Assembly: GCF_037042905.1 (NCBI RefSeq)
Contig: NC_087250.1
Coordinates: 4,962,001-5,026,000, forward strand
Direction: 5' to 3'
Origin: Lytechinus pictus
Taxonomy: Eukaryota
DNA: 64,000 bases
Shown in pieces: positions 11,318-43,654 of the stretch. The notes under the pieces were generated by a model, which did no database searches, was not told the DNA's origin, and worked only from the letters and a program-made list of their open reading frames with translations. Position 1 is the stretch's first letter. The number at the start of each line of letters is the position of its first letter. A program made the position numbers and the translations under genes.

Positions 11318-11742
11318 CAGGGTGCTACATAAGCACTTGCCTGATTCCCCGGGGCAAGTAAAAGATAGAGTCGGGCTAGTGTTTTGAAGTAAAGACCAAA
11401 ACTACTTGCCCGAATTGGGCAAGCAAAATTCTCACAGTAAAATGACAAAAACTAGGGTCGATTTGATATGATATTGACCCTCATTTTGGTCATGGCAAGC
11501 AAGATGAAATCACTTTTGAAAAAGAAATGCAATAACAAGGTAGATCAGTTCATGTCAAAAGAGAGAAAAAGGTCAATGGTTTATAAAACCACAATACTTG
11601 TACTTTCTTTTGAAGAGGTACATATTTTTTCAGGATTTTTTTCGGGCAAGTGAAATAGATTTTCGGGCAAGTATATCACAACTATTTAAAAATTTACTTG
11701 CCCGACTGGGCAAGTGCTTCTAAAAAGTTATGTAGCACCCTG
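11318..11742. mobile_element. MITE with CAGGG...CCCTG ends (hAT/P-like)
   Basis: TIR cagggtgctacataa / ttatgtagcaccctg, flanked by the direct repeat ATACCGG. Confidence 0.8.
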
Positions 11743-14104
11743 ATACCGGTACTACAAAACGTACAGTAGACATGCATTGCCCTGCTGTAGTGTGAATGTG
11801 GTCCTTGATGATGTCATAATGGAGATGGAGGTACATTATGTACATTCATGTATGTAAAGGTTATTCATCACTTGACTCTCAGTAAAACCAAGGGTTGAGG
11901 GCAGGCAAAAAAATGTATATATATTTCTTTATGGGAGGGGGGTGGGTACTTCTCACAACTAACTGCCTACATCTGCAACATTAGAAAGCTTTCACTTTGC
12001 AATGAATGGGGATTGTCCAAGGCTACATGTACTTGTTTAGTTCCTAGGCCCCTTTTGAGCATTTAGGGTATTTTTTTAAATTTATTTAATTCTTTTTTTT
12101 TGAGGGGGGGTTGAAATTTCCGAGACCATGAGCGATTTTTTTCCCCTGCACCCCTCCCTCAATCCAAAAAGGAATGATGTCCATACTCATACTAGACATC
12201 AACAAGCTATTAACTACTCCTCAGCTTATATGTCACATGTAATGGCATTACGCCTCAAGAACACGATGATATGAACGTTTCAACAGCACTCCGCAATAAC
12301 ACACCATGATTGCCTCTTTATGAGTGCTACTATTCACGATCCCCTTGGCTTGACTAGAAGCTGTTCACATTGACATTTCTTTGGCGTAGCCCCTTCCTTT
12401 GAACTTGACCCGAGTACATTAATTTTCAGTTGTACTTTTCATTTTTGTTCTCTCAGTTTCCTCTAGCTCTTTGCCAAATAAATGTTCTGAATGAATATGC
12501 CCTAATCTACATGTATGTGTTGGCTCTTGCTTGAACAAATACTTTTAGTGCCCCCTCCCGCGTTTTTTTATTTCAATAATCAACATGTTAGAACGTATTG
12601 GCCTACTTCACAAGTGGACCTTCATTTTTCACACTGACCTGATTGTTCAGTCATGAAATACAATGAAATGAAGAGGGCTGAAATATCTTTGTTAGCTTTA
12701 TCCTACTTCCGCTGACAAAGTAAAAGACATGGCCCCTTGCAAAGCATTAATTAGCAAATTGCTTTGAAAGTGCTTTTGTTCATCTTTGGATCCCCCTCCA
12801 CCCTAGGCCCGTTTTGAAAGTCATTTTTTTTATGCACGTGTACACGGCGTGTTTTTCGGAGTCCATCCCACCCCTGCCCCCCCCCCCCCCGCCCCTCGTT
12901 TAATGCCACCATCACAACATCAGTTGCAATGCTCTGAACTCTGAAGAGAAATTCATCTACAGTATAGGCCTGTATTCATGCATACAAATAGCTTTACCCC
13001 CATATCCCCCCCCCCCACCATTACCTCCCACCTACAATATACAAACATCTTCAGGAGACACTTGGCAATGTGAACAGACCCATCATCTTGGTGTAAGTTA
13101 AACATTCATGAGTTAAGATGTTTTGAGAGGCCCGCCTATCATATTGCTATGTAAGGAGATGCTATTTGGCCCCCAATGAAAGGATGCAAGCAGGCTACAA
13201 CGCTTCATCTCCACATATATCTCACAGGAATTATCATCACCCCAATCGACAGAGTCACATCTCAAGGCACAAAAGTCATGTCGGTGCAGGAAGGCCCTTA
13301 GCAACCACACTTTCGCAAACCTCACCGGTTGCCCTTATGCAATGCCCTAATGTGCACTACTAATGCGCGTAAGTGTGGTGATAAGTTCGTTTCTGCACCG
13401 ACAGACGAAACATTTTAGGTGTGTCGACTGTGCTCAATTCACATAAAACCAACATTGATCTAACAATATCTGTACATGTACATGTAGGTCATACATTATC
13501 AAGAGAAAGTGTAAATTTTACCAAAAATAAAAGAAATGCTGATTTTGCATGACACTGTGGCAGACCGCTCTTTCTGAGGAATTTCCATTGAAATAGTGTC
13601 ATCCACAAGTTTATAAATATAAAGTCCCTGTAGTCTATAAAATTCTTGTCTTTTTTTTTTTTTACTCACGAACAGATTTTAATATGAAACACCCACAGGC
13701 TCTATTTTCAAGACTACATGTACAGTAAAATCCTATTTTTTCTTTAAAAACATAGCCATAATCATCACTCTTAAAGTCTTTAATAAATAAAAGTTAAAAA
13801 AATCCTATGTTTGTGGGTGGGAAAATTCTACTTTGTGGGAACTTTCAAAAGTTTCAACTTAAATCTCGTACGGGTAAATAGGATAAAATTCTAATTGGCA
13901 GCTCTGTACATCAACCCCATTAAAATGCAAGTTAAATTGACCTAAAAAAAAAGTCTGAATCTACCCGCATTTCTCCACCATGGGACCGCACCTTGTCTAC
14001 ACCTGTTCTTGATGTATTCGTTCCATGAGCCAGCACTGCATGATGGGACACTAATCAATACCACTAATGTAACCCACATACATGTACTATATCTGTTTTA
14101 CATT

Positions 14105-14950
14105 ATTGACAGTTCTGTGGGTCCGTTTCATAAAGCTGTTCGTATAGTTAAGAGCAACTTTAAGAACGACTCACTGGTGATCCTTTCTTGTGGTAAAATG
14201 ATATTCACCATTAAATGTTTATTGGTGATGGTTTTAATAGTGCAAAAGAAAGGTTGACCAGTCGTTCTTAAAGTCGTTCTTGACCCTTATTGACAGTTTT
14301 GGGGCCATACATAAAGTGAAGAGCGACTTTAAGAACAACTGGTGATCCTTTCTTTTTGTACATGTAGTAAATGGTATACACCAAAATGTTCATTGGCAAT
14401 GGTTTAGTGCAAAAGAAAGGTTTACCAGTCGTTCTTGACACTTATTGACCATTCTGGGAGCTATTTCGTAAAGCTGTTCAAAAGTTTAGAGGACTTTAAG
14501 AACTACTGGTGATCCTTTCTGGTAGTAAATGGTATACACCAAAATGTTCATTGGCGATGGTTTAGTGCAAAAGAAAGGTTTACCAGTCGTTCTTATATAA
14601 AGGCGTTCTTGACATTTGACAGTTCTGGAGGACAGTTCATAAAGCTGTTCATATAGTTAATAAGACCAACTTTAAGAACGACCGGTGATCCTTTCTTGTG
14701 GTAAATTATTATTTTCCTTTTCATCTTGAATATTGTGGTTAGTATTGCAATTTATGTTTAAACATTTTCATACATTGTACGCGCTATGGTACTTTTTGTT
14801 TTTAGCGCCTCTAAATATCCATTATTATATTGAAATTAATGATATTCACCATTAAATGTTCATTGATGATGGTTTACTTTTATAGCGCATACCACTCGTT
14901 CTTAAAGTCACTCTTAACTTTATAATACGAACAGCTTTATTAAAAACCCA
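14105..14950. repeat. degenerate tandem array (4-5 units of about 165-190 bp) derived from a MITE
   Basis: Recurring cataaagctgttc...actttaagaacgactggtgatcctttct...ccagtcgttctt. An intact single MITE lies at 15236-15416. Confidence 0.8.
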
Positions 14951-15235
14951 ACACAATCAGATAGAATGAATGTCCAGAGTAGGTCTGATTTGGGGGTGGG
15001 GTGGACTGAGGCAGAAACTGGGCCGACTATAAACATTCAATTGTTTTGATCTACCCTCTTTTCAATAAAGTCTGATTTGAGTGCAGAGAATGTCGTGAAA
15101 CAGAAACTGGGCCAACTGCATGTATGTAGGCCTTATAATCAATTTGTTATGCTCATCTTCCCTTATAATGGCGGGTTCCTCCCGTTTCATTTTATCCCTC
15201 TTTGGAGGTTATTTTCAACAAATCAAAAATAGCCC

Positions 15236-15416
15236 AGGTGGGTGTTTCATAAAGCTGTTCGTAAGTTAAGAGCGACTTTAAGAACGACTGGTGATCCTAT
15301 CTTGTGGTATTAATGGTATATTCATTGGCGATGGTTTAGCGTGTAAGAAATGATCACCAGTCGTCCTTAAAGTCGCTCTTATCTTTATACAAACAGCTTT
15401 ATGAAACGGCCCCCAG
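15236..15416. mobile_element. short palindromic MITE
   Basis: gggtgtttcataaagctgttcgtaag ... acagctttatgaaacggcccc. Confidence 0.8.
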
Positions 15417-15492
15417 GACCTATGAAATAGCATCCCTTATCCTAAATTTCCACAAGTTTTTTCCTTCATTATCCTTCCTGTTTTCCATTTAA

Positions 15493-15916
15493 TAGTCTGC
15501 AGGACAGACCCTTGGTTTTCACGATTCGCATAGTGCATAATGCAGAGTCTGAATTAGTGAGACTAGATTCACTATGTACATGTATGTAACTGTGGCTGGC
15601 TCAACAGACAGGGTCTTTGAGTCTAGTCTTCACTCAAGATCTTTTACTGGTTGAAGTGTCAAATGTGAGTCTGTGCTTGCAGACTACTCTTCACCTGTTG
15701 GGACCTAGTCTGCATGCACAGACTCAAATTTGACACATGAGAAAATTATGCCATGTCGAGAGTGAAGACTTGAATCCAAACTCTGTCTTTGAAGCTCATT
15801 TCATGGTAAAAATATCTTCAGTACTTACATGTATGAGTGAATCTAGTCTCACTACTTCAGACTCTGCATTTATGCAGCATAACATGTGAAACTTAAAGGT
15901 CTGTGCCTGCAGACTA
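15493..15916. mobile_element. foldback-type MITE; related copy at 25439-25620
   Basis: tagtctgcaggacagacc ... ggtctgtgcctgcagacta, with long internal inverted symmetry (gtgagactagattcac / gtgaatctagtctcac). Confidence 0.7.
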
Positions 15917-15954
15917 CATGTACTTTGGACTCATCACCCTTGCTCCTACCTTAC

Positions 15955-16370
15955 TCTCCTACAAGTTCATTTTCAAACAAACCAGAATAGCCTTGAAGAT
16001 CGCATCCCCCTCTTCCAAATTGCCTTGAGATGTTTTTCTCTTTCATCCCCTTCTCAGCACGGATATAGGTTAACAAGCTCCAGGCGTTGCTGCTGGTACT
16101 ACTTCTGTCTGTCTTGCGACTCTTGAAACACAATACCGCAGACGTTCTTGTCTGTCACTCACGCTCAAATGGTCGATTGCCGTTGTCTCTGCCCGTTCCT
16201 CCTTCATCCGATTCGCAATCAATTCTTCTCTCATGATATTCAGTAGGTCCAATCATCCTCGTCTTCTCATCATCTTTATGACCTTTCCCATGGAGGCTTT
16301 ATAATCCTTCCTCCTCAACCCGACATATGAATATTATTTTTTCATACATGAAGGGCTATCATCCTATCAG
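15955..16370 (-). other. possible alternative 5' exon of the catenin gene
   Basis: Non-repetitive segment, purine-rich on the minus strand, ending in a gtaagg donor-like motif near 15955. A GC-rich patch lies upstream at about 17220-17345. Confidence 0.3.
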
Positions 16371-16650
16371 GACCCCGTCTAACAAAGAGTTGTGATTGAT
16401 CTGATCATCCACAGCTATGGAAAGCCAGCAACGTCAATATCTAAAATGCACGTTTGTTCAAAATATTTTCTACATATGATGTACATGTATATTCATGCAT
16501 CCATCATTTTCCTGAAAATTCAGTGTGCTTCTCTTTGCTTACAAATGACAATTTCCAGTGGAAAAATTCTGACATTGATGGATTTCCATACAGTTGAGAA
16601 CTTGAGATTGATTGGATCAATCGCCACTCTCTGTGAGATGGGGCCCCAGG
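16369..16650. mobile_element. ~280-bp MITE family; other copies at ~46510-46833 and 58829-59102, shorter relative at 17853-17987
   Basis: TIR gacccc...acaaagagtt..gattgatc / gatcaatc...actct...ggggcccc, with a shared interior across copies. Confidence 0.78.
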
Positions 16651-19743: not shown

Positions 19744-21015
19744 ATAGAGCGTTTTAGCGATGCATTATTTTGGTCTGAAATCCGATGAATAGCTCCTGTA
19801 CAAAATTTGCCATTGAAATTTATAAGACTTTTTCAAAGGTGTAGTGCGCATGCGCGAATGCGTGAAATATACAATGGGTATAACAAAGAAAGCAATGTGA
19901 TGCGCAGTATAGAGCGCAATGACGTCATAATCAACTACCGGTACACGTAAGTCGCATGTCAACGACAAGCTTGATCCTAATGAAGTGATGATGCCATATC
20001 AAATTATATGACTTGTTCAACCAAATTTCTCCCTCTTTTTTTTGGGGGGGGGGTTGGGATAGATGATTATATTGGATGGCTTTATTTCATGGAATTCCAG
20101 AAATATTCCACTCGTTAGGGCCAATACTCCACTCACCTGCGATTCGTGGAATATTTGCCCAAACACTTGGAATATTTCTGGTATTCCATTCTGAGCCACC
20201 CAATATTTTATCATAAATATTCAAAACTGCATCCCATTCATCAACAAGTTTTATTATGGGTGGCAGCAATAGGAAGCTCCTTGGTAATACCAAATCAGCA
20301 AATGCATCAATAACACTGACTTTGGCAAGGCTTGTCATAACGATCATCAATCATTCCTACATGCGCATGTATAAACAGGGAAAATTCATGTACAATGTAC
20401 ACATATATGCCAACATTCTGAGAGAAACAAATAATTCTTCCAGTTTATTTGACTTTTATATGTAGTTTCATTATTTTCTCTCTCTCTCTCTCGAGTCTTT
20501 TTGCCAAAGTTTAATAGCGTTTTGACAAAAATATGTATTAGAAAACAAAAAGATTTTTATTCAGAAAGAGAAAAGGACTCTTTATTTTGTTAAAGGTTTT
20601 TTTTAATATATATATATAGTGCCTGTTCCAGTGGTTTTTTTTTTCATATGACATCCTGCAATGTGACTTGTGAGATTTTGAGATCAAAGGACCATTTCAT
20701 GCAAGTTATCAGCTATGACAATTTTCATGTCATTATTCAACAGTTATAAAACCAGACACCTGTAGGCCTACTTCGAAGCCATTCAAAACTGAACTGTCCG
20801 ATTTGAACTCATCAAACGGCAAACGTTGATTTAATAATAAACACCCAATTGGGCACTGTACATGTATTAAGCTTTGTCGTGACTGATCATGGTAGGCCCT
20901 ACTACTGACATGATTAATTGCATTGATTATTACAAATGCATGATCAGTTGTTAAATTCAGCCAAACGATCAATCGCTATGCATTATCAGATTAAACATGG
21001 CTTTTGCCTTTTATA

Positions 21016-21583
21016 CAGTGCGTCCCAGAAAAAAGGAAACCGGGATTCCCATGTCTTTTTTTCTTCAAAGGCAAATGAAATATGATATCTAATTCTATTT
21101 AATCATATACATGTAGTTTAATTATTCCTCTTTATGTTGATACCTTCATGTAATATGTGACAAACACTTCAGGCATTAATGAGCAAAGTGAGTTTGAAAT
21201 TTTAATGTCAAAACTAGGTTGCGCAGAAAAATTTGACAAGATTGGTTCGTCATACAACGAACATGCTTATATGACGATTGTATTTCTTTTGTATTTCTTT
21301 GTTTTGTATTCTTTATTGTTTCTCTCACTGATCCCTCAAATGAGAGTGGATTCAGATTCACACACGAGTTTCTGCGCAAATCGTTTCTGATACTAGTATA
21401 TATACCTGTATGCATCAGTATTTATTGTTTGTAATCTGTCATGCCTGAACGATTTGCTATTTTGGTTTCAAATCAGAGATGAGATTCCACTCTTGCCATG
21501 AGTATCAAATTTATAGTAAAAACACATCTAATAATTCTGAAATCTTTCTCTGAAAACGTGCTTCCTTTTTGTGGGACGCCCTG
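21016..21583. mobile_element. Tc1/mariner-like MITE (CAGTG ends); a right-end fragment of the family ends at 26091
   Basis: ta|cagtgcgtcccagaaaaaa ... ttttgtgggacgccctg. Also tttttctgggacgcactg|ta at 26073-26093. Confidence 0.75.
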
Positions 21584-24500: not shown

Positions 24501-27500
24501 CTTTTGATCTAAAACATGAAACAAAATATTTTTTTTCATGCAACAAAAGTTGTTGTTTTCACACTTAATTTCTGTTTAGGCACAAATGATTTTTAAATCA
24601 TGATAAAGCTGAAGATCTAAGCTTTAATATGATATAATTTTTATAAGAAGATGTATTTTAGATGGGTCAGCAGCCAGCTTTTCATAGGCCAAGTACATTT
24701 TGCAGCTCAAAAACAAGAATACTGCGCTCTGATTGGTCATAGACCACACACCCACGCAAATTCCAATGTTCCCCACACTGGGCCTCTGCAAGGTCACACT
24801 CACCATGTGGTAATCTCTTCGAATTACCCGCGCCTGTTTGTTTTGAAAACAGTATTCAGCCAATCAGAACTCTGGATTTTATGTTACTCAGAAATTTCAG
24901 AAATCTCGTCTTGCATCTTGATGGATATAACTGGCTGCTGACCCATCTAAAAGATGCCACATATCAAGAGTGACATTGTAAGAAAGTATAGAGTTTGAGC
25001 TTTCTGATGATATAAATAATGTTGGTGCCTAAAACACAAAATGTTGCACAATTTGCAAGTGAAAACAGGGGAAGAAAATTCTGTTTGATGCATCTTTTCA
25101 GGTAAAAAATTCACTTATTTATCAAAATATTTCATTCAAAAGAAATGACCAATATAAAAGGGTAACATTTACTCTTGCCCATGGTACAAAAATAATCAAT
25201 ATTACTGAAGGAGAAAGTGGTTAAATTCTTTGAGAAAGAAAGTCTCACAATTCACGAGATTTTGCAGGGACATGAATTCAGCCACGAGAGGACTTGGATA
25301 AATCTTGCTCATTTGCTCATTAACACAGGGGCTTGCGGACTGACTGCAAACACATTATGACAATCCATACAAATTGGCTTCCCATTCAAAAGAAATCTGG
25401 CAAAATGTTTCTGAGTTTACAGTCAATTCAGCACTCAGCTAGTCTGCAGGCACAGACCCTGATTGAAACTTTGATCAACAAGTGTGTCTCCACGCAAAGA
25501 CTAGCACATACAAAACTTGCTGTTTCAATTCAGAGCGAGAGGGCCTTCAGTACACAAGGCATGAGTAGGCTGCAATTCAGACCCTTGATACTGGAGTGAA
25601 GGGTTTGCACAGCAGACTAGCACTCAGCAGCTATCAGCAACCTGTATGCAGCCACAGGGGTGAGCGCTGCGGCTGTGACTGGTGAATTGAAAATGCATAT
25701 GATGGTGGGCCGGCCATATTGGAAACGCATCTGACTCCCCAACGCCATTCAATAAATTGCGAACAACGTAAAGAATCAGCATGAGTACAATACAAGATGG
25801 ATGGAAGGTGTATTTGGATTGAAGTTCACTGCTGAGTGATGGATGGATAGTCTGATATCCAGACCTCTCTATTGATAATTTGCATACAATGTATTTTGAT
25901 ATGGGACCTACATGTATGTAGGCTACATGTACGGTTTGTGCACACTCACAGCCAAGGATATTGAAAATGTATCTCACATCAATTATATCATCTTCATCAA
26001 AATTATGGTATATGTACAGAACGAAACATAAATGTCGGAAATGGACATAAGTATCGCTAAATCTCGGTTTCGTTTTTTCTGGGACGCACTGTATGGAGGA
26101 TTGACGAATGACTTGGGTATGGTCTGTACAATAAAGTATGAATACAACATGTAGCAAACCAAATGGGCTTCACAAACACAATCACTTTTTTGATAAAATC
26201 AAGTACCTGTAATCAACTACAATTCAGTATTAAAGCCTACAGTGTATTGGCTAGTAATGGCAAAAGCCGAAAATAGACAAATGAATGCATGCACATGTGT
26301 AGAGGCTAATATACAGATGAATTTAAAAAAGAATTGAAAATGTGCAATAGTTCGGTTGTAATGGCAAAATTAAAGGAGATGAATAAAAAATGTTGATGGA
26401 AAGTATTGATGTGGAATAATTTGGAGCAAGACTTACTTTGTTTTTTGGCTACTGAAAGTAGCGGAGGATGTTTTACGGCAAAATTTGGAGCAGGGTCGAG
26501 AGCGGCCGTGGCTCTTTCGCAAGCTTTGATAAAGACCAAGGTGCTGTTCAATAAACAGTATACATGTATATGAAAAGTACATGCAAATCAAAAGTTTATA
26601 ATGTCATGCACGCACAAAAAATAAACACAACAAAACAAGACTTAAAAAGTACAAGTAAATGTACATGCAAATCACATTTTTTCAAGCATTAAGTTAATAA
26701 CACACACACAAATCAAACACAACAAAACAAAGTGTTGATTGATAAAACTTGAAATGAAAATTTCAATTAAAAAAAATTCCCCTATTGAATTGTAGGCCTA
26801 AAATGTACAAGTACATCAAAACCTGAGCTCCATTTACACTGCACAATTTATATAAGGAGACCACCAAAAGCCTATGGAAATTAAACCAAATCCTAGTATT
26901 CATCATGCTCTGTAGCAGTATGCTGCAGGTCAATGCACAATTCAATTCAATCTTTATTCATAATTATTCTCAAAATGGTATTAAGAAACTTGTATTACAA
27001 GCATATTAAAACTGCATCATCTGCCAAAAAGGTGGAAGAAAATACTTTGAAAATTTATATAAAGAAGAAAAATGTCCAATGAATCACTCAATATTTTGTA
27101 ATATCAAACTTGATAACTAAAGCTTTTGACAAGTGACAAGTAATGGATGTCTGTGGCTTTTGTTACAACCCATTGACCCGATGAGGTCAGGGGTCATCAG
27201 AGGTCAGTGGGGATGACTGTATTGAGTTTATCCTAGTTTACTGGGTAAATAATGCCTTTGGTCGTTCAACACCTGTTACAGACAGGCACACACCATTTTA
27301 GAACAAACCATGGAGCTATGCATGGAACCATGTGTAGTAGGTCCATGATGGAACTAACAGTTCTTGAAGGAAACCTCTCACCAATGAGCACTTTTAGAAA
27401 CGTACGTCGACATATAGACGACTGGTACGAGCCGTGTCATGACCCGCTGGTTATTGCGCTGTTTCACGTGGACGTACTGTACGTACACGTACAAGTGGAG

Positions 27501-28345
27501 AGAAATCTAAAGTATTCGCATCTGCAGTGAACAAGGGCAGACGACGACGCTGACTCGAACGATCAGACGACTGCTACGCAGTTCTCGTTCACTGCTCCTA
27601 AAAGTCTCTATTTTATAGCTCCATGCTCTCACTCCACAATTAGTTTTAGGGGAGAATCAAGTTCATTATAGACTAACATATAAAGCTACATGTATCATTC
27701 ACCCATTGCGAGCATATTGTATCTAGCCTTTTGGCAAAATAACATCAGTTGTATCAGGGACATGAGAGGGCACGTCCCTGGTTGTATCCAGTATTTTTTA
27801 ATGCACATTGGGATGCACCAAGGAGCTTTGTTGTTACACATATCAGCCTACATACACGGTATGATACAGAAATAGCATTATTGGAGCCAAAGTTTGCACC
27901 ATTTCCTTCTCATACAAAACCTCAATTTGCCTTTTAAATTAAAGTGAACCATGATTGTACAGTTCTTTTAAAGTCAAATTTTCAGGTATTTTTTTCTTTT
28001 TAATAGTGTGCATTACCAAATCCTTCTTTCATTTTCATGCACTTGTAAAGAATAATTTGTGCATGTGTGAATAATTTGTACTATATACAATACTGTACAT
28101 TTTGTAATCAAACAGAAGAGAGGAATGTACACCGTATTCACACAATACAGCTTTGCATTATTCAGCCCAGCATGAAGGGAAATTCTTTCAGGAATTAGCA
28201 GGATTTACCGCTTTGTAGGCCCCACATCTTATGAACAATAACATGTAGGGTATAAAGTCTTCACATAAAATTCTTTGAGGGCTTTGTAGATTTTATTTGA
28301 TTCAGAATTTCAGATCGAAGGATTCAGGAAGGAATAAAATACACT

Positions 28346-28823
28346 AGGTGGTTTCAGACCGCCTCGAAGTTCGTCAGTTCCAGGTATTCTCTGATCGGGA
28401 AATTTACCCCGATCAGAAAATACCAGGTATTTTGGCGGTCTGAAAGCAAACTACGCGTAATATCCCCGAAAGAAAATACCCGATAAATAGTAGGTACTTG
28501 GCGAAATTACGAGAACTTTCGCGGGGATTTTTCCAAGGTCGTGGGTATTTTGGCGGTCTGAAAGCAAATTACGGGAACTTTTAGCCCAGCGTGTCGTTGG
28601 GTGCGGCGCCGTGCATGGGTTGCTGCTGGGCTAGTGATTTTGAATTTCGCGCCTTGCTGCTTATCAGACCATACTGCGCATGCTCGTAACTTCAGGAACT
28701 TATCCCGAAGGGTATGTTTCAGGGCGGTGTGAATGCAGGAATAATTAATGGGTATTTTTCAGCCTAAAAAAGTTCTCGTAATTTAACGGGGATTCTTGTG
28801 ATCGAGGCGGTTTGAAACCACCT
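28346..28823 (+). mobile_element. 478-bp Harbinger-like MITE, copy 1 (TSD ACT)
   Basis: act|aggtggtttcagaccgcctcga ... tcgaggcggtttgaaaccacct|act. Confidence 0.9.
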
Positions 28824-30016
28824 ACTGTCATTGTACACAATGGGCTTTTCGCACGTGAATCTTGAATCATCATAGTATAAAATGAGAATTGCTATTGTAA
28901 TCGTGACTGTGATTAGCATTCGTGATTCCAATCATGTTCTACATGTAGTTTGGTTTCACACGTGCTACATGTAAATATTCGTTATTAAAAAAAATATTAG
29001 CCTTGTTTTTCACTGGAATCATCATTCAAATTTTATAATACAATTTTTTTTTACTGTGTGAAAGGGCGGCATGTCCAATGCAAAGTAATATACATGTACA
29101 CATCTACACATGTACATGTACAGGCCTATAGATACATGTACAGTAATGTTATGTACATGTACATGTACAATGTAGCTGTACAAGGAATGCCATTGTCACC
29201 TTTGGTTGGTACAAATTTACAGTAGGCTACCTGTACAGTATGCCTTCATGTACATGTACATGCCTTTCACCCCTTGATTTGGGACACAGAATGCAAAGTG
29301 CAAAAAGGCCTCGGTATTGTTTACTTTTCAGGTAGGCCTACATGTACATGTACATGTTATGTACATCTTGTCAATCATGGCCCTTATTGGGCTTTGCAAA
29401 CAGACAAAGGTTGTTTATTTATAAACGCTAGCAATGATACTCAATACATGGATAGCATACTCCCCCCCTTCACACATTTTCAGACAATCAGAAGCAAAAT
29501 TCATAATCAGTCTGAGTGTGTATGACCCTTGGAAGTTTGACATGGCTGAGCGCATCTATTGAAATGCATTGTAAAGGGGAGAAAAGAGTGAATAGTGACA
29601 CTTCACCTCATGCATATAAAAAGCGTTTCTCATTCACTCAAAAAAAGAGTGCTGTATACAACAACATCATATGCAGACCAGCATCACTGCCTGCCTACAC
29701 TGAGGTCTGGCCTACAACTACAGTGTACATATTTTATGTAGGCTGTAGTAGTTGGCTTTAATAATAATACATGCGTTGTTGTTCACCATTTGACTTTATA
29801 TTTGTGAGATACCATGTTGCTTTCTATGTGGGTCGTATAAAAAAAAAAAACATATTGGCCTACATGTACATGCAGGCTAGGCCTCTCTCCTTGTACTACA
29901 TAATTGTCTCCAATGTTATTGTTGATTTTTTAGTTTGATCTACATCCATGGTTTAATGTTGGTCTATGCACAGTTTGTATGTACATGTATGTGGGCCTGT
30001 AGGGCTGTATACATGT

Positions 30017-30590: not shown

Positions 30591-30833
30591 ATACATGAAG
30601 GCCTGCATAATGTACATGTTCATTAATACATGAAGATGATTGACAGAAACTGTCATCATGTTAACATTCAACATGACTACTACGTATACATGTACGTGTA
30701 CATGTAAAATAGGACAATACAAAAGCCCCTCTGAAAGTGAAACTCTGTTATTACCCCCAACTCTAACTGTAGTCTTAAATACTCTTCATTATTTTGTAGT
30801 TCCTGAATAGGAATTCTTCTATCATGACACAAA

Positions 30834-31311
30834 AGGTGGTTTCAAACCGCCTCGATCACAAGAATCCCCGTTAAATTACGAGAACTTTTTTAGGCTGAAA
30901 AATACCCATTAATTATTCCTGCATTCACACCGCCCTGAAACATACCCTTCGGGATAAGTTCCTGAAGTTACGAGCATGCGCAGTATGGTCTGATAAGCAG
31001 CAAGGCGCGAAATTCAAAATCAAAAGCCCAGCAGCAACCCATGCACGGCGCCGCACCCAACGACACGCTGGGCTAAAAGTTCCCGTAATTTGCTTTCAGA
31101 CCGCCAAAATACCCACGACCTTGGAAAAATCCCCGCGAAAGTTCTCGTAATTTCGCCAAGTACCTACTATTTATCGGGTATTTTCTTTCGGGGATATTAC
31201 GCGTAGTTTGCTTTCAGACCGCCAAAATACCTGGTATTTTCTGATCGGGGTAAATTTCCCGATCAGAGAATACCTGGAACTGGCGAACTTCGAGGCGGTC
31301 TGAAACCACCT
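30834..31311 (-). mobile_element. 478-bp Harbinger-like MITE, copy 2 in inverted orientation (TSD AAA)
   Basis: Near-exact reverse complement of 28346-28823, flanked aaa|aggtgg...ccacct|aaa. Confidence 0.9.
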
Positions 31312-32370
31312 AAAGAGATGATCATCCCACCCCCCCCTCACTCCCAAGTCAGGACATAAAAAAACACTGAACTCTAGTGTCTCGCCGCCCACAATGGGAG
31401 AATTCTTCTGCCATGACAGTTCAACCTGTCATCTCAATAAACAAAGCCTTGCAGGATTCATGCTTGTTCAAGCTCACGCCCACACAACATGAAGTGTAAA
31501 TTTCACAATTTTGGTTTATTAAAGAAGTGCTGTAGCCTTCATACTTGTACATGACTTGAAACAAATGTAAATTTCAGAATGTACATGTACATGTACATGT
31601 ACAGGTATATTGTAGTTTACACAAACATGTAATGTAAACGACAAATGTACATGTAGGCCTAAACATGCACTCAGGTACAGTACGTGTAAGTACTGTGAGT
31701 GTGCAGAGCATACCTGTAGGGACTCTCAGAAAATTGTGCTCATCTCTCCTGATAATTGAAATTTTCATTTAAAAATACGAAATCGGAGGAATTCACAACA
31801 ATAAACAGAAAAATATCAACTCTCAGCGTGGTGTTTAGGGGGAATGAAAACTGAAAGTTCTACTAGGCTTGGCACAGTAGGCAATAAATCCGTCAAAGAG
31901 AAAGAGGCCTGTTTACTTTTTGTCCTCAAAAAGGAGGAATTATTCATTAATTTTCCCCCCATGCTGTGTAAAGGTCAGTGAACAATATTCTGGATTAGGA
32001 ATCTGACCACAGCATTCTTTTTACTGTACACATTTAATTCATTTGGGACTCAATGTCATACATATTGTGATACTGAGGTCCTTTTTTCTCTAAATAGTAG
32101 AGAAATGCGCATATTAAAATGTTTGGAAAAAATAGAAATAAATGTAGGCCTACATTGTACATGTACATGTATGATGTATTTCATTACTTCAAAGAGAACC
32201 AACTGATTCAGGATTTGCAGTGTACTGCATGTACAGTACATGTATGTATTACTTATTAAAGATCCATCAAAATCATCAGGCCCTAGATGTAGCCAGGTTC
32301 ATGTTGTTTTAACTTTTAAATATGAAATTTCCCCTCTAATTCCCCTCCAGCCTACAGTAGGGCTATACAT

Positions 32371-32769
32371 GAAGAGCTTGATTCCAAAAGGTGCTAAATC
32401 CACTTTTGACCCAAATTGATTTTCTGACAGAAATATATATATGTATCTTAGACGTTGGAATCAAATGCAACATATCGCATTTGAAAAAAAATTGGAAAGG
32501 TTGGTATTAAAAATTGATTGCAAATTTGAGTTCTGCTCCAAAAGGAGCTAAATCCATGAAAAATAACATTTCAAAAATTCTTTACAAATTGATAATGAAT
32601 GCTAGATTTTTGAAATCATGATTTAAATATAATCTAAGATGATAGTACTATCATATTAATAGAACAGCAGTGGCTATTAAAAGGGAAAGTGGTGAATTAA
32701 GAAACCTGGATTTACAGAAAAACACCAAAAGTGGATCTACATGTAGCTCCTTTTGGAACAAAACTCTTC
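32371..32769. mobile_element. MITE with ~38-bp TIRs
   Basis: gaagagcttgattccaaaaggtgctaaatccacttttg / caaaagtggatc[tacatg]tagctccttttggaacaaaactcttc. Confidence 0.75.
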
Positions 32770-32925
32770 ACGTGTACACTATAGTGTACTTTCCCTCTGC
32801 AATAATGGCAATAAACATGTGAGGGACTTGCAGTCGTGCACGCTACCTTGCCTTTTTCTCTGATGACATTTTAAGTCCCATCTAGTTCCTTAATAGGAAA
32901 GGCCATTAGGCACAAACAACCCTTT

Positions 32926-33799
32926 AGGCGGTGCTGCACCATCCCGAGTTTGCTCAATCTCGAGATTTTAGCCCGATCAGCCCTCTTCGCGATTAATCTC
33001 GAGATTCAAGAAACCCCGTCTGCACCATCCCACGAAGAGCGATTCCTGCTCGAGCGAGGCAACAAGCCCGATATTACGAGCATGCGCACTTTCGGATCTT
33101 GGAGTTTCAACGGCCCGCGCTTTTGAATAACTTCCCGCGATATGCAAGCAATGTACTCCTTTCACTAGCACTTTCGCCGAATTCAACCGGTGTTATGCAA
33201 CAATCCTCTCAGCTCAGCGAGTGAAGAAGTGGTGTATTCTTCGTTAAATATGATGGCGGAGTAGGAGGCAACGACAGAGAGAGAGAGGGGGAGAGAAGGA
33301 GGAAAGAAATGCTATTTGCTCACATTTTGCGAAGGAAGACAACACTGCTGTCAGTGTTGTTATTGAATATGACCATCGTCGATGAGCGCCTCCCCCTTCG
33401 GTATGGTCTCTCCCAAAATCCATTCACTGGTGGGACACCATCGTTGCTTATGAACGCTATTCGCATGTATAAAGTTGACTTCCGCACGTGTTTATGTTTT
33501 GACCAAGGCGGAAGTGGAACGCGAATTGCATTATGGACTGACGTCATGAATAAATTACCCCGAGTCCAATCTCGAGTGCGTCTGCACCGACGAATTAGCG
33601 GGATAATTCGTAAAATAGCGCGCTATTTTGCAAATAAACCCGAGTTGACTTGGGATTGCAATCTCGAGATTAATCCTACGAACTAGCGCGATAATTGCGT
33701 CTGCACCGCCAACTATCTCGAGATTTTTCAGATCGGGATAATTTGCCGGATCAGAAATAGCGCGCTAATTTGAAAACTCGGGATGGTGCAGACGGCCCT
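32926..33799. mobile_element. 874-bp Harbinger-like non-autonomous element (TSD TTT)
   Basis: ttt|aggcggtgctgcacc ... ggtgcagacggccct|ttt. CpG-rich, which suggests a young insertion. Confidence 0.85.
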
Positions 33800-34145
33800 T
33801 TTTTCAGCAGAGACACAAACAACAAGATTAAGGCTTTAAGGGTACGAAAAATCAATAGGACCACAGGTTTCTCACTGACTCAATGGGGTCAATAAAAAAA
33901 AAGAAAGAAAGAAACAAGATTGTCTGTTTTCAAAAAAATGCTATCCTTGACTGAGCCCAATATCTGTGCACACAATAAAATGCATTTATTGCAGGCCTAC
34001 TGGTATCCATGTACATGTATATATGTAATGTCTGTAAAAAGGCACTTTATTGTGTACACATGTAGGTCTGTGTACATTATATGTAACATTATATGTAGGC
34101 CTACGTGTAGGCAAACAATATTACCAATTCATACAAAATTAGTGT

Positions 34146-34925
34146 AGGGACAGTGATTTTCCGTTTCTAAAAATTGCCTTTTCCGTTTCAGAAAATCTCC
34201 AATTCCGTTTCAGCATGTCTGAAAACGGAAATTCCGTTTCCCCATAGACTTTGTGTACATGAAAAAGTGACAATTCCGTTTACATAGAAAACCAATACGC
34301 AATGAGTAGCGCGATGTCAAAATGCTAGCGCTGGTCAAAATTTGCAGCCACCGATGTACTAAAATCGCTTTAAAATCCATTTTAATCGAAGAGATTCGAG
34401 CTAAAAAACTATTTAGAGAAACATAATCAACATTAATACATCCTCACCTTTCATATTATTAGCATTATTTTATGGTTACATGGGATTTTATTGCTGATTT
34501 GGGGACTTTTCGGACATCGTTTTGAGCAGTCGACGACTTCCGCTTATCCGCCATGTTGGATATGTTGAATCACCGTGATCATTGTATTATGACCGAACGC
34601 AGGGGGCAGCAACACACGGCCGTATTCTGCCTTATATGCGGACGTCAGTGTAAACTAATTTAGATACGATCGAGTGATGGAGGGGCTCGAGTGTAGTTAC
34701 GATGTGTTGATTGTCATGATTGTTGTTGCAAAGTGAGATCGTGTTTTTTTCAATTGATATTCGTATTTTGTTGAGGATTTGGGATTAATTTTTGTTGATA
34801 TTTTGTGCATTTTGAGAAAAAACAAGTTTTCCGTGATTTTCCGTTTGAAAAGCCATTTTCCGTTTCAAAAGGCCGATTCCGTGAATTCCGTCCGTTTTCC
34901 GCGATCGCGGAAAATCACTGTCCCT
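34146..34925. mobile_element. 780-bp hAT-like non-autonomous element (8-bp TSD ATTAGTGT)
   Basis: Perfect TIR agggacagtgattttccg, subterminal ttccgttt repeats, exact 8-bp TSD. Confidence 0.9.
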
Positions 34926-35292
34926 ATTAGTGTGTACCATACATGTAGATGTACATGTATATAATTTAGACCTTCATCAGGCCCAGATGTATTAAACTCA
35001 AAAGAGAAACAAAGATTAATAATGTAGGCCCATACATGCATAGCACATGTACATGTATGTACATGTACATACAGGCCTGTATGTACATGTACATGAGGCC
35101 TACATATTAATAACAGTCACATGCACGACTCTTTTTTATACCAAACCATACTACTGTACATTGTATAGGCCGATGTAGATCTGCATTCCTCATCCTGCAA
35201 CCGAAATACGAATCTACATGTACATATATATCCGACTACATCATACATGTAGACTTTCGTGATTTGAATTTTGAAGGATTGAGAAAACTTAC

Positions 35293-35427
35293 CTCACAGG
35301 CTAAAAAGAAATCTTCAAGATGTTTGCCGTCCTTTGGTAGAATGATCCTTCGATTGAAAATGTGGGAAAGAATCAAACAGGCAGTCTCCTTGCTGAAATT
35401 TCCAATTGAATCTTCAGTAGTGAAAGT
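35293..35427 (-). other. putative 5'UTR exon of the delta-catenin-like gene
   Basis: 135 bp with a strong acceptor (ttttttttccccttcactttgtaatacag), a consensus donor (GAG|gtaagt) and no ATG inside. Confidence 0.6.
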
Positions 35428-35959
35428 CTGTATTACAAAGTGAAGGGGAAAAAAAATGCTTTACATAACAATGCACGTGTACATCAAGTTGCTCTAATTT
35501 TAGGCCTTTTTTCTCAGACAAAGTGAAAATTTAAATTAACTTTTAATAGTTAAGCAACCTGATTATTGACCAATTACAATAGTGTGTACACCAATCTGAC
35601 ATCATCGGAATTCAACTTGTAAAAAGATGCACTTGTATGTCCCTTTCAATTCATGACAAAAATCAGAATTTATGAGGCATGGAATTTCAGAAGGCAGTGC
35701 AAGGTCAGAGGTCAAATTCACTTGACCCATATTCTTAAAGATATTGGGGCGATCTTTTGACACGATACTTCAAGGTATTTTGGCAGCCAGTTTGTTGGGC
35801 TCAAACCCCTCAGTTCTATAAACATACAGCTATTTGTAGAAGAGGACTGTATTTTGTGTAATTGAATCCCTTGACCTGCAAAATATCTATAGGCTACTGA
35901 AGGTGGAATCTCAACGCTTTCATAAGTACCTGATCCGTCACGAAAAAGCTGGCATTTAA

Positions 35960-36896
35960 GGACGTTCCACAGTTAAAGTGAAATCCATGTCATTTTCACC
36001 AAACTTTGCACATAGATAATTTAGAACCTTAATATTTGAAATATGCAAAAATTAACATAGGTCCATGTGCTTGATTTTTTGCTATAGAGCTTCAAAGTTC
36101 ACCCAAATTTATGTTCTTAGGAATTGCGCATTCAAAAGAATTTGGCATTTTTAGACCGCCCAAGATTACTACATTGAGTTTAAACCTGTATTACTCAGTC
36201 AAAATACATGAAAAAGTCATCAAATTTCGCGAGAGAGTTAATAATTGTATCGTTAGAATGGAGAATCTATTAATAGTGCTATTTGTTTGCAATTTTAAGT
36301 TTAACAGCACTGTCAGTTCTTAAAAATGGCGTAAAAGATAACAAAATCCCAATCTGAAAAATGTAAAATTTCAGTAACAAACTACAAACGTACAATAAAT
36401 GCTGCACTTTATTCAAAATCCATGTCATTTTCACCAAAATGTGCAGAGTTGTAGAGAAAGGTATATCTAAAAGGTACAAACATTAAAAAATAGGGGTTCA
36501 TGTGCTTGTTTTTAAACTATCAGCATTTTTATTAGAGCAAATGTGCTTTTTAAAAAACACCAAAAATGGGCCGAATGCTTAGTATCTATGTGAAGAAAAA
36601 ATCAAAACCACTCTACCATTTATTCAAACTCGGGCTAATATTCGTGATTCTTGGCAGCACTGCAGAGTAAAGTATTTTGAAATTGTAGAGAATATTTTTT
36701 TGAATGGTCCATGGAATAATTCAATTTTTTAGCTTCATGAAATAACGCATCGGATCTGCAGTTAAAGTGCAGAAGATGAGAAAAATCAGCTAATACCCGC
36801 AGCTAATTAATACCTGTTCATCCATTGTGACGTCAGCGCGCAGAGTGTAAACTATGCGCAGATCATAATGCGCACAAATATAACTGTGGAACGTCC
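35960..36896. mobile_element. 937-bp Kolobok-like element; a second TTAA-type fragment starts at 36901
   Basis: ttaa|ggacgttccacagtta ... taactgtggaacgtcc|ttaa, a perfect 16-bp TIR. Confidence 0.88.
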
Positions 36897-38337
36897 TTAA
36901 AGGGAAGTCTACCCTGACAAAATTTTTATTGTACAAATACATGTAGCAGAAAAGTAATACAAATCAGTCAAAGAATATGAAACTTTTTTTAATTATTTAA
37001 AAAGAAAGTCAAAGAGCTTTCTTTAGGTATGGGGACTTGAGGATTTCACTCTTGCTTCAGGAGTCACTTTAATCATATTAATGGACCCTATTATAAAAGT
37101 TATCAGTTCTAGTAGGATCCATAGTTTAATGTTTCAACTGTATGAAGGTGAAGATTGAATTCAACCAAGGGGTTATCATTCATTCAACCAATTGCAAGTT
37201 TGCTTCTTCTTTTTTTTTCTCAAAGAAATAACAGCAAATTCTAATAGGGAAGATTGGTGACAGTCTGAAAAAAATATACACACCACCCGCCTAAAAAAAA
37301 CAATACAAAAATAAACACATCATGTACATACTCATGTACATGTACTGTATGTACGTGTACATACAGTACATTTGTAAATGAAATACAAAGAAAAGACAAT
37401 TATGAAAGTTGTACTAGTAATTGAAATCAAAGAGACGTTTTGTAGGCTTTGCGAGTATGCCTATGGACATTTAAATGTTTACGTATAATGTCTATTAAAG
37501 CTATTTCAGTCCATTTCTACAGTATGTACATGTATGTTGTAGACTGTACATGTAGGCCTACTATCACTTCAGTTTTTAAACTGAAAATCTCAAACAGACG
37601 GGTCTGACAGCAGCTCAATTTCATTCTCCTCAAGACAGTGTTCTACAGGCTACTAGAGTGTCACCCAAAAATGTAGAGAATGTTTACTGCCTTTGTCAGT
37701 CATGGTTCATTCTCGTTTCAAAATGTCATGAGAATAACTGCAGACAACTTGAACAAATACATAGTGTATGAGAGAAAGACTCTTCCTATGTAGGTCTACA
37801 TTTACATGATGTACAATGCAGACATTACATGTGTAGGCCTATGATTTATACATGTGAAAAAAAAGAAGACGGGCTACATGTACATGTACATGTATGTATA
37901 AAGGGCAAGCGATAAGTCCCTAAATTTTTTTAAAAGCCTACATATAAATGAGAAATGAGCCACTGTCAAATAATATTTCTGCCCACACGTCATAGTGCAT
38001 TAAAATATCTGAACACAATAGACGGATTCAAAATGAATTCAATTTTTACACTGAAAATGTAGACTACATTGTACACTGTATGTACATGTACAATGTACCA
38101 GTAGATATCTACATGTACATGTGCAGGGTAGGACCCTACATGTACATGTACATGTAGGGTGTAGATTTAATACACAAACTTGCCCAGATTTGTCAAGAAA
38201 TTAGATTTCTTGAACTTGAAAGGAGACTAATTGAGACATTCCTGAGGCATGATCAATATGAAATGTAATCTACCCCATGGGACGTTTGAATTTATAGGCT
38301 TTGATTTAAGAGGTGTTTCAGAGAGCTAGACTAGATA

Positions 38338-39156
38338 TAGGGTGCATTTATCCGCCACTTTTTCACCCTAGAATCATGATCTGAATCATGATTCAAATCA
38401 TGATTCTGCAGAATCACGATTGCGTTTAGTCGAAATTGAATATAATCATGATTAGAATCACAAACATGAAACACGAAAAAAGGGGCGTTTGGAAAGACGT
38501 TTCTGCAGAATCACGTACGAAAATGTTCGAATAAACGATATCGTGATTTGAATCATGATTATATGACCTCACTGTGTCGGGCTACTTTCGGTTTGACTCT
38601 TGCCAAGCTCAAGTCTCTCTATATGCTCATTGTATGTACATGCTTACTCTGCATGCATTACTTGTCATGTTCAAGTTCTGTGTTGGTCATCGCATCGTCC
38701 ACTACTTTTAATTTTTTGGTCATGTCTTCAACTTCAAGTTCTAGTAAATGAATCAACTGGACAGACAATGATCTCAGTTGTTGTTGAGTATAGAGTGTCA
38801 ATATTAAATTGGATCTACGCTGAAATTCACTTCCGAACACCATTTTGGATAAACTAACAAGATGAATAGAAGCATATGGACCCTATATGATAGAAGTACA
38901 CAAAATTAGGTATAGACTGAATTCTGGAAGCAAAAGATTTTTCGAGAGCCGAAACACGTGCGAAAAACTTCCTCTGTCAAACTGCGCACTAGTGATGCGC
39001 ACTGGATTGGCCCGAATCTGAGGAGAAACAGCATTGGAATGAAGGTCGTCTAAACGCTGATTCTGTGATATCGTGATTCATGTTTGTGTTTTGAATCATG
39101 ATTCAAATCATGATTCAAATCATGATTCTGACTTGAGGTCGCATAAACGCAGCCAT
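38338..39156. mobile_element. probable non-autonomous DNA transposon with AATCATGATT subterminal repeats
   Basis: Imperfect TIR tagggtgcatttatccgcc / ggtcgcataaacgcagccata, with mirrored aatcatgattc clusters at both ends. Confidence 0.6.
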
Positions 39157-39689
39157 AGTCTACCCATGCAGACTCATTGTAAAACAAAATTTTATTAAAT
39201 AATAAAATTTGAATATTGATTGTAAATTATTATTTTATAATAACTACATGTATTTACAATCAATATTCAAATTTCAATATATAATTTTAATATATGAAAT
39301 GTTCTTCAATACGGCACTTCGTAACATAGCTCATCGAAGCTACGTCATATCGAAGCGGTTCAAGGGTCAAGCCTATTGTATTTGTGGTGTTTACGAATGG
39401 ATCGAGGGATCTACATGAGATTGGTCTGGTAAGAAACCTCTCATTTTTCATATTCATACTAACATATTTTTTACCCCTTCATTAGCATTAGGCGTATAAA
39501 AGTTTACAGATAAATAAAATCAAGAGAAACAAACCGATTTCACCCTCTAAATATGGATTCGTTAGGGAAATCCATCTGTGTTTTATACAAGTCTTGCTTA
39601 TTATTAAAAGCAATGTATGGGGACCATTTCAAGGCTCTGTGTTGTTAAAGTATATTAAAGTAAAAATATTCTAAAATACAGGGTGCATT

Positions 39690-41780
39690 ACATGTACATG
39701 CCGCCGTGTACAGGAAAATCGCAGGTACAGCACATGCAACACTTGCACTGGATCGCGCAAATTTAAAGAATATATTTCTTAGATTTTAACTAGAATAACA
39801 TTATTCTACAAAACTTACTGAACGATATGAATCAAATTTCTGCTTATTTTCTTGAAATACTACATTTAAGTGCTTATTTCTCTTCTCGTTGACGAATTAT
39901 GGAGTTAACTCGCATTTCCCGATTTTTTCATCTAAAGTAAAGAGGGCGCGAGATTCATGTTCATATCAAACACACTACAAGGGAAAGACTACGCACTTCA
40001 AGTATTTCATGTACACGCGTAAATCGATGCAAAGCAATACGCGAAGTCTGCAAAGTGTCCAATCTGTTTATTGTATAGACTTTGGTGGAACGTTTGTTGA
40101 CAAACGAACGGGGGGGGGTCTTTTTTTTTGGCAACAAGTCAATATGACTATTTTCGCCGTAACAGTTGCTCGCACTGTTGGCTTCGTTCAAGGCACATAT
40201 AATTTTTTTGTTTCATGTGTCATCATTTTGAATGTTTTCCAATAAGTTTTAACATTAGCAAAAATAATCTAAAAGTATTTTTTTAAAGTTTGGTGTCCAT
40301 ATTTCATCAATCATAGGAATTGCGCATACAATGAATTTAGATAAAGTACTGACGAGCTGAATTAAGGTTGTGAAATGTATTAGCGCCACCAATGACCTTC
40401 CTTTTATTTCTGTGGAAGAGACATGCGAAGCCGCTTTCCATGCCGAGGTAAGCGTTTATTATCAACAAATAATTTAAAAATTGAAAATGGATAGCCAGTC
40501 GCCGGAAAAAGCCCTGGTGAACATAGACCAAGGCAAAAGCTTTGGTCTCTGTTATGTTGGTTGTTCAGCTGAACTCCGTTGGCTTCACTCACCAAATACA
40601 GAGACCGAAGTTCTCGCGCGATCTGTACAGGGGACTCAATGGCCATATATGTTTATGTATATAAGTTCGGATAAAACAGGGATGTGAAGTTGCGCGACAG
40701 CCGAGGTAAGTCACTGTTTTTGTTCCTTTTAACTTGATTTTTCCCCGTTCTTTGGCAATTAATGCCAAGAGGGAATATTAATTTGCATTTCGGACGCGTT
40801 AATTTTAAAAAGTTTCATTCATTAAAGACAAAAATTGAAGAGCCCCGACGGGGGGATTTTGCACTGTAAGTCCCCTAATGGTGGCTGCACGATAGCGAGC
40901 CGTCTGTGTACGAGGAGAAATTAAAAAAATAAAAATAAATAAAAAAACTCCTCGAAACAGACGGCTGCCAGGCTCTATGTTGAACAGTGAACTGAATAGC
41001 AGAACGAGTTTCGGCAAACATGAATCCTGTTATAAAGTGATGTTAAGTGACAACTCAAAAATCAATTGACATTGTGTAATCACGTTCGTAATGCAAGGTG
41101 AGTTTAATATTACTAACCTCGCAATACGTGTGAGTGGCTAGGCCAAACATAGACACCAATTAAATGCAATAACTTAAAAAACGTACCGGCGGTAGGACTA
41201 GGATCTACTTATTTTTGCTGACGATACTGTTTGGAAAACATTCAAAGCGATGACAAATTTAACATTAAATTTAAAAATAGAAAATTCTTCGGGCCTTGAA
41301 ATGAATAACATAAAAATCAATCGGCATCAATCATCAATCAAATAACACACAAACAAACACATATTGGATTAGGAGCTGCCGAGCCTGCTAACTCGCCACC
41401 GCACCAAAATAAATTACAAATTGTATGGTTTCCCGAACCCGGATCTAGTACTAGTAGTAACGGTCACCTAACGGTACCCCGGCGCTGCCGCTCCGCAGCA
41501 CTCCACGACCACGGGCAACGCCAACCTCTCGCTCTCAAAATCGGTCAATAATCCCGCCTTCTTTGCAAGATAGACACACAAAATCAACCATCAAAACTCA
41601 AATCAAACGTTCTTTATATATTATTTAAGGGAATGAGGGTTACAACTCACCAAAAAAAAATATCAAAGGGTAGAAATCCGAGTTATTATTCCACTGACAG
41701 GTGAGTGACTAGCTGTCCAAATTCACTATAGACGTTCGCATAATCGACACTCAACAGGAGAGGGCGATAGACCACAGTGT
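39690..41780. promoter_or_regulatory. CpG-retaining, promoter-like region
   Basis: CpG dinucleotides are visibly common here (e.g. 41380-41560), in contrast with the CpG-poor, CATG-rich intronic DNA to the left. Judged by eye. Confidence 0.45.
41651..41770 (-). other. putative first (non-coding) exon / TSS region of the delta-catenin-like gene
   Basis: Minus-strand donor TTG|gtgagt at 41651 inside a CpG-retaining region. The upstream boundary is approximate. Confidence 0.45.
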
Positions 41781-43580: not shown

Positions 43581-43654
43581 TCTTCTTTTGAACGTGTTGT
43601 CCTGTTTGATTTTAAGAAAAAAAGTCGTTTTGGTGGATTTTTCTTCATAACGTA

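Follow-up and report, generated by a model that had tools for sequence, protein, structure and literature searches.

Tc1/mariner elements leave scars of cut-and-paste transposition at TA targets. According to the available portion of PMC6943129, their transposases cleave the non-transferred strand at a point a few letters into the element, after which end joining leaves either the first or the last 2–4 letters of the element between two TAs, and the scars of Sleeping Beauty read TACAGTA or TACTGTA. Minos, a member of the Tc1 family, often leaves a footprint of six bp (PMC3386967, available in part), and it is reported to excise and integrate in sea-urchin embryos and in the germ line of Lytechinus pictus, as cited in the accessible part of PMC11361634. 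Footprints of 0–3 bp for ZB and 0–4 bp for Passer are given in the accessible parts of PMC7913693 and PMC9976928. Excision scars of DNA transposons are known from single loci and assays; as a bulk component of a genome they are not known, as far as the open-access literature was searched. The DNA analyzed here is a 64,000-nt stretch of the Lytechinus pictus genome (contig NC_087250.1, positions 4,962,001 to 5,026,000 of the forward strand; hereafter the window, with positions counted from its first letter), in which the eight-letter palindrome TACATGTA, a TACATG unit closed by a second TA, occurs at very high density between 11.7 and 39.7 kb.

The motif shares features with several known systems and departs from each. 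Like the Minos footprint, it is a net gain of six letters at a TA, made up of a duplicated TA and four further letters (PMC3386967, as far as available). Unlike in Minos, the inner letters are the palindromic CATG, and the window yielded no element ending in CATG. The motif also resembles the scar of Sleeping Beauty, which is bounded by TA and takes its letters from the termini of a CA...TG element, by way of 3' overhangs and end joining (PMC6943129, in its available portion). With the motif masked, TACAGTA was the top TA-N3-TA word of the motif-rich domain (10 sites against 1.85 expected, 5.4-fold). However, the Sleeping Beauty scar adds five letters, taken from one end with a central mismatch, whereas the motif found here adds six and would need both two-letter overhangs to be kept. 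The TA target, CAGTG-type ends (here at 21014 and 26093) and a two-letter stagger are shared with Tc1 and Tc3 of Caenorhabditis elegans. The usual scar of these two elements adds four letters, TACATA or TATGTA, and that of Minos is composed of Minos's own four terminal letters; in the domain, TACATA and TATGTA are enriched only 1.7-fold and 2.2-fold, respectively. With the motif masked, TATGTA, TACATA and TACAGTA head their size classes and correspond to the classical scars of +4 and +5, but they are weak evidence because they are also one-step derivatives of TACATGTA. The degenerate clusters and the arrays of period 6, which reach 25 nt, recall hexanucleotide microsatellites and cryptic simplicity, but most copies here are single TA-bounded units that arose de novo.

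A very high density of TACATG(TA) had been claimed in a preliminary description of this DNA, and the enrichment is confirmed. Exact TACATGTA sites numbered 93 in the window, against a mean of 1.72 and a maximum of 5 in the 100 dinucleotide-preserving shuffles of the window that served as background for this word; in the 11.7–39.7 kb region there were 80 against 0.8 expected. Once homopolymers and ordinary microsatellite phases were set aside, the word ranked first among the over-represented 8-mers. Merging yielded 79 independent TA(CATGTA)n runs (hereafter motif runs), 68 with a single unit, 8 with two and 3 with three, and 31 of the 68 single-unit runs had no related 5-mer within 25 bp. The region between 11.7 and 39.7 kb held 67 of the 79, the densities being 0.68, 2.4 and 0.16 runs per kb in the intervals 1–11.7, 11.7–39.7 and 39.7–64 kb. 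The density of TA was near-uniform over the same intervals (82, 75 and 74 per kb), and even the part poorest in runs stood several-fold over chance (4 against 0.5). Read depth had no significant relation to the number of runs per bin (rho -0.22, p 0.24); a weak relation to the observed/expected ratio of CpG across the window (rho -0.28, p 0.03) was not significant within 12–40 kb. The motif-rich region is non-coding: a Pfam scan of 117 open reading frames (ORFs) of at least 70 amino acids, 107 of them drawn from a list of 148 and 10 scanned separately, gave no match inside 12–40 kb, and the frames there look non-coding by eye. The suggestion that the process reshapes introns is therefore without basis, no gene model or domain having been found in that interval.

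The unit has a defined shape and register. All maximal stretches matching the period-6 sequence in any phase were listed, and among the stretches of exactly 8 nt, 21 of 33 were TACATGTA, though six phases are possible with similar chance expectation. Of all the 98 stretches of at least 8 nt, 46 started and 45 ended with TA. In the same way, 93 of the 140 TACATG hexamers run on into TA, and 93 of the 133 CATGTA hexamers come directly after TA. The unit is thus a palindrome bounded by TA and not a hexamer in arbitrary register. Among the 16 palindrome-centred TA-NNNN-TA words, only those with CATG (93), TATA (an ordinary microsatellite) and GGCC at the centre stood out, the last being TAGGCCTA with 12 sites in the window against 0.47 expected. 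In the domain, the top TA-N4-TA words were likewise those with CATG (95-fold) and GGCC (27-fold), and the words centred on CGCG, CCGG and CTAG, with 2–4 sites each, were too weak to use. A general process that makes palindromes was considered and rejected, other 8-mer palindromes being enriched only inside satellites.

Comparison of repeat copies within the window shows that the motif is usually a derived insertion and that, in the clean cases, it was gained as six letters at a TA with no prior unit. An excision footprint should add four to six letters, that is, a duplicated TA plus 2–4 letters. A net gain of exactly six was read three times, at 14359, 16482 and 32738, in a small sample of paired copies that was partly picked in the preliminary description. 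At 14359, six extra letters were found relative to three further copies of the family reading GG/TA/..., and at 32738 the partners are short units at 32382–32408 and 32528–32556 (opposite strand); there the gap placed by MAFFT differed, and the exact flanks were read by eye. The two other comparisons put forward earlier hold only roughly, with gains of twelve letters at 1349 and seven at 36938. TA bounds the unit on both sides, and the partner copies carry a TA at the site in three of the five comparisons.

Since the clean gains of six letters occurred with no prior unit, pure slippage is excluded. The paired copies thus bear out the earlier proposal that sequence is added at a TA, rather than by slippage beside an existing unit or by a CpG change at constant length; gains are not confined to the neighbourhood of existing units, as 14359, 16482 and 32738 demonstrate. 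Whole-unit changes beside units, as in a microsatellite growing by slippage, do not describe the runs overall, although they hold for the 11 multi-unit runs. Decay of the CpG forms TACGTGTA or TACACGTA into TACATGTA was rejected because six letters were gained in the partner comparisons and the CpG forms (6 and 3 sites, respectively, against 93 of TACATGTA) behave like other one-step variants, being no commoner than other transitions. A census of 24 paralogue alignments (4,968 columns, 122 gaps) contained a sole 6-nt gap, which was ATGTAC, and 3 of the 15 distinct events of 6–12 nt, by the authors' grouping of rows, were of the TACATG type, such sequence making up a few per cent of the region. 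A third copy of the family at 16.4 and 58.9 kb carries, at 46600–46676, about 75 extra letters including (TAG)n and (TATGATGTA)3, a few bases upstream of the spot at which the first copy gained its TACATG.

After their creation, the sites appear to have decayed freely. Variants of TACATGTA with one mismatch numbered 123 against about 40 expected and were spread over all eight positions, a pattern that fits exact creation followed by free neutral decay; the ratio of exact to one-mismatch sites gives a rough mean age of about 0.1 substitutions per site. Young transposon sequence is devoid of the motif. Contigs from four public sequencing runs were compared with the window (21 runs had small word shares), among them X7, from another organism, and X15, another public run. 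A young pool of 4,033 bp was formed from two copies of a MITE (miniature inverted-repeat transposable element) that are 99% identical, a TTAA-flanked element absent from one X15 contig and the segments matching X7 (94–100%). It held no motif run, against 11.3 expected from the rest of the domain (P ~1e-5), with a TA density of 60 per kb. The motif was therefore not imported by those elements and accumulates in resident DNA. Carriage of the motif inside a repeat family was rejected, as the flanks of the 93 sites have no extended consensus and the young elements are free of it.

The TTAA-flanked element of this pool (35955–36901, about 938 bp) has perfect terminal inverted repeats of 21 bp and TTAA on both sides, and one X15 contig joins 35955 directly to 36897 with a single TTAA left. 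This element, TTAA-specific (piggyBac-like) and non-autonomous, is polymorphic for presence and absence. The X7 contigs match the transposon segments at 24627–25346, 33034–33799, 36129–36851 and 38817–39103 at 99–100% and cover no single-copy bin at 85% likeness or above; either these families are shared and of very recent origin, or species have exchanged them.

The coordinates of the motif sites, arrays and elements are collected in Table 1. The arrays named in the preliminary description were all recovered, each being covered by a row of Tandem Repeats Finder (TRF) output (29092–29183, 31579–31607, 35045–35095, 37875–37894 and 38079–38156).

Table 1. Positions of the motif-rich domain, motif gains, arrays and associated elements in the window.
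Feature	Position	Strand	Basis or remark
Motif-rich non-coding domain	11740..39700	.	67 of 79 runs, 2.4 per kb; no Pfam domain in ORFs of at least 70 amino acids
Derived +6 at TA, one copy of a ~158-bp repeat family	14359..14366	.	other copies GG/TA/GTAAATGG or GG/TA/AAAT
Derived +6	16482..16489	.	46.67 kb copy ATGATG/TA/TAT; 58.94 kb copy ATGATG/TC/TAT
Derived +6 between GGAT(T/C) and TAGCTCC	32738..32745	.	two other short-unit copies read GGATT/TAGC
Two-unit run, 12-nt gain against copy at ~51.8 kb	1349..1362	.	partner AACTTG, no clean TA
Seven extra letters, TACATGT	36938..36945	.	against copies at ~4478 and ~4866 (reverse strand), no TA there
Densest cluster	29091..29366	.	eight motif runs within kb 29, interspersed with units of TGTACA, TACAG and AGGCCT
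(ATGTAC)4.8 array	31579..31607	.	longest perfect period-6 run, 25 nt
Run cluster around palindrome TACAGGCCTGTA at 35070	35045..35101	.	TRF and sequence
TA-delimited mosaic TA/CAG/TA/TG/TA/CATG/TA/.../TA/CATG/TA/GGCC/TA	37518..37560	.	direct reading
Perfect (TACATG)3.3 array, TA to TA	37875..37894	.	TRF, period-6 listing
Cluster of three runs, perfect three-unit array at its end (38137–38156)	38080..38156	.	TRF, period-6 listing
TAGGCCTA	29333..29340	.	shares TA with TACATG array; TA also shared with TACATGTA at 31654 and 37553
476-bp MITE, GG...CC ends	28345..28824	+	flanks TA/TA; in other public runs of high copy number, with very high depth
Second copy of the same 476-bp MITE	30832..31312	-	476/480 identical; flanks AA/TA
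Tc1-like terminal inverted repeat, TA/CAGTGCGTCCCAGAAAAAA...	21014..21050	+	sequence
Matching Tc1-like terminal inverted repeat, .../TA	26057..26093	-	first 21 letters identical to 21014

The most likely source of TACATGTA, though an unproven one that we place at somewhat less than an even chance, is the repair of breaks left by the excision of TA-specific cut-and-paste elements of the Tc1/mariner type. A recurrent, sequence-specific mutation would turn TA into TA-CATG-TA with a gain of six letters, would build up over time in unconstrained urchin DNA, and the scars would then be eroded by ordinary substitution. We infer that transposase cutting, end joining and the chemistry of the overhangs gave rise to the insertion, and two routes may be envisaged. 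In one of them, both two-letter 3' overhangs of a CA...TG element would be kept and filled in (TA+CA+TG+TA); such retention of two non-complementary overhangs by fill-in is supposed here from general knowledge of end joining. In the other, a four-letter staggered cut would be made in an element with CATG ends, the overhangs of which would be self-complementary. Where units abut one another, slippage probably adds growth or shrinkage. TAGGCCTA would be a like scar (TA+GG+CC+TA), left by TA-flanked elements with GG...CC ends.

Elements with CA...TG ends and with GG...CC ends lie in the region. The Tc1-like ends at 21014 and 26093 are of the TA/CAGTG type, have CA as their first two and TG as their last two letters, and lie 5 kb apart with single-copy DNA between them. 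The GG...CC ends of the 476-bp MITE match TAGGCCTA, three of its four flanks are TA, and a TA shared with TACATGTA is present at 3 of the 12 TAGGCCTA sites. The footprint claim of the preliminary description thus held up in part: the TA-bounded gains of six letters, the neutral decay, the absence from young copies and the presence of CA...TG and GG...CC elements nearby agree with it, but neither a filled site nor a transposase was found. The scars of hAT, piggyBac and Harbinger elements were considered and rejected, as none of them gives TA+4+TA; the targets of these groups are 8 bp, TTAA and TWA, respectively. A metagenome scan with the terminus of the MITE returned one match, on a bacterial-looking contig (L001), which was judged a chance one.

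Two further elements were noted in the motif-rich region. A palindromic MITE at 15493–15916 has the termini TA/GTCTGCAGG... and adjoins CATGTA on its right side (...CAGAC TA CATGTA); TACATGTA is common to both of its arms, at the mirror positions 15577 and 15826. A 782-bp element at 34145–34926 has TAGGGACAGTGATTTTCCG inverted ends, internal tandem repeats of 19–22 bp and a direct repeat of TTAGTG on both sides; by its ends it looks hAT-like, but the duplication seen is of 6 bp.

Several observations weigh against an origin by excision. Under the canonical rule that the scar comes from one end (PMC6943129, available portion), TA+CATG+TA needs either an element ending in CATG or the retention of both two-letter overhangs. 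A search of the window for TA-flanked elements ending in CATG found none, the matches starting with CATG being the arrays themselves; no element occupying the same TA was seen in the paralogues within the window or among the best-supported joints listed from the contigs of other public runs; and Pfam detected no transposase domain in the 117 ORFs of the window, those of 12–40 kb included. The GT...AC MITE at 15493–15916 predicts the word TAGTACTA, which is not clearly enriched (2 against 0.66). The density of motif runs falls 15-fold at about 40 kb while that of TA is equal, and so abrupt a fall is not what local hopping alone predicts. Gaps of less than 30 bp separate neighbouring runs in 15 of 66 cases, against 4.6 expected, a short-range clustering that is predicted by slippage-type growth as well. 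Around the isolated sites the period persists weakly into the flanks, with A at -3 in 16, T at +3 in 17 and G at -1 in 12 of the 31, which could reflect either a preference for certain targets or what is left of old arrays. No more than 19 of the 79 runs are covered by any alignment of paralogous sequence within the window, and most such alignments are self-matches of low complexity. Moreover, between TACATGTA at 55626 and its partner arm there is a difference of three letters, and the motif-like 9-mer CATGTACAT at about 46.69 kb was born by a two-letter gain of TA, so that not every copy obeys the rule of six.

The clustering and the flanks of the isolated sites are also what would be expected if no transposon were involved and a self-complementary (ACATGT)n sequence were born, expanded, contracted and decayed by slippage or unequal exchange, the single TACATGTA copies being remnants of collapsed arrays. 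The two or three units present in 11 of the 79 runs, the several degenerate clusters and the many TGTACA, TACAG and TATGTA variants around the runs agree with such cryptic simplicity. We nevertheless consider it unlikely, while leaving it a real share of the probability, since it has to account for 68 single-unit runs, 31 of them with no related 5-mer nearby, and slippage does not predict that the boundaries are phase-locked to TA. In addition, the paralogues of the three clean gains offer no TACATG-like sequence on which slippage could act, and the collapse of an array would still require a first insertion, itself unexplained. Breaks at TA might instead be repaired with letters copied from TACATG arrays elsewhere, by microhomology-primed synthesis or ectopic conversion and with no transposase. 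The inserted letters are indeed constant and not copied from the immediate flanks, and the weak similarity of the flanks of isolated sites to the unit could supply microhomology. Insertions templated in this way mostly copy sequence close by, however, and no template lies within 25 bp of the 31 isolated sites; as the enrichment of TAGGCCTA and the exact TA ends of the unit are also left unexplained, such repair seems improbable.

The perfect palindromy of the 8-mer and its concentration in a single domain that ends sharply near 40 kb would also suit a binding site for a dimeric DNA-binding protein, the 28-kb domain then being a selected homotypic cluster. Against this, the one-mismatch variants are as many as free decay would give, the sites arise by insertion inside decaying transposon copies, and no sign of conservation was seen, X7 covering no single-copy part of the window at the likeness given above. 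No such site of an animal factor was found among the titles and opening lines of abstracts in the open-access literature, and a functional palindrome is, in our judgement, very unlikely. An artefact of assembly or sequencing is scarcely credible. No point in its favour was found, and where contigs of other public runs cross single-copy stretches that carry the motif, their gap letters are too few for it to be absent. One X15 contig of 760 nt, with 8 other letters and 14 gap letters, spans 21495–22264, where the window has five motif runs with 42 inserted letters; with only 14 gap letters against 42, most of these inserts are present in X15 too, although X15 is possibly not independent of the assembly.

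If the excision origin is accepted, a wider proposal may be made that we advance only tentatively and hold less likely than not. The TA-specific elements of Lytechinus may visit and leave the germ line so often that their scars (TA+CATG+TA for those with CA...TG and TA+GGCC+TA for those with GG...CC ends) reach 2–3 per kb of old non-coding DNA. Such scars would then form a major class of small insertions, would mark the age and accessibility of a chromatin domain and would seed self-complementary (TACATG)n microsatellites, so that past visits could be read in DNA from which the elements are gone. If the excision origin holds, counting TA-N4-TA palindromes would gauge how often cut-and-paste elements have passed through a given region, the origin of one class of hexamer microsatellite would become known, and the very high indel diversity of sea urchins would be traced in part to a concrete source of mutation. 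The open-access literature, to which the search was confined, gave no paper that describes TACATGTA or (ACATGT)n either as an excision footprint or among the repeats of urchins, and nothing relevant on Tc1 footprints in sea urchins; subscription journals lay outside the search. Should the footprint reading fail, a highly specific insertion process that turns TA into TACATGTA would still want an explanation.

The remainder of the window, which as a whole has a CpG observed/expected ratio of 0.65 and a G+C content of about 37%, holds a few ORFs of note and several repeats. Rfam and tRNA scans of the window found nothing. An exon-like ORF at 55799–56341 (-) is 99% identical to the ceramide-1-phosphate transfer protein of Lytechinus pictus, and ORFs with ankyrin repeats were found at 48161–48577, 53255–54892 and 55000–55356. 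These frames mark the window as nuclear DNA of a sea urchin. The ORF at 1744–2130 resembles by eye the C-terminal part of the reverse transcriptase of a non-LTR (long terminal repeat) retrotransposon, with no Pfam match at E <=0.01. A perfect (ATGG)119 microsatellite at 8020–8494 and a tandem repeat of six 204-bp units (42352–43584, 96% matches) are both free of the motif. Lastly, a complex satellite at 48600–50200, with units of 10, 17, 31 and 83 bp built on CCAGTT/AACTGG and CCAATTGG, adjoins the ankyrin-repeat fragment at 48161–48577 (-).

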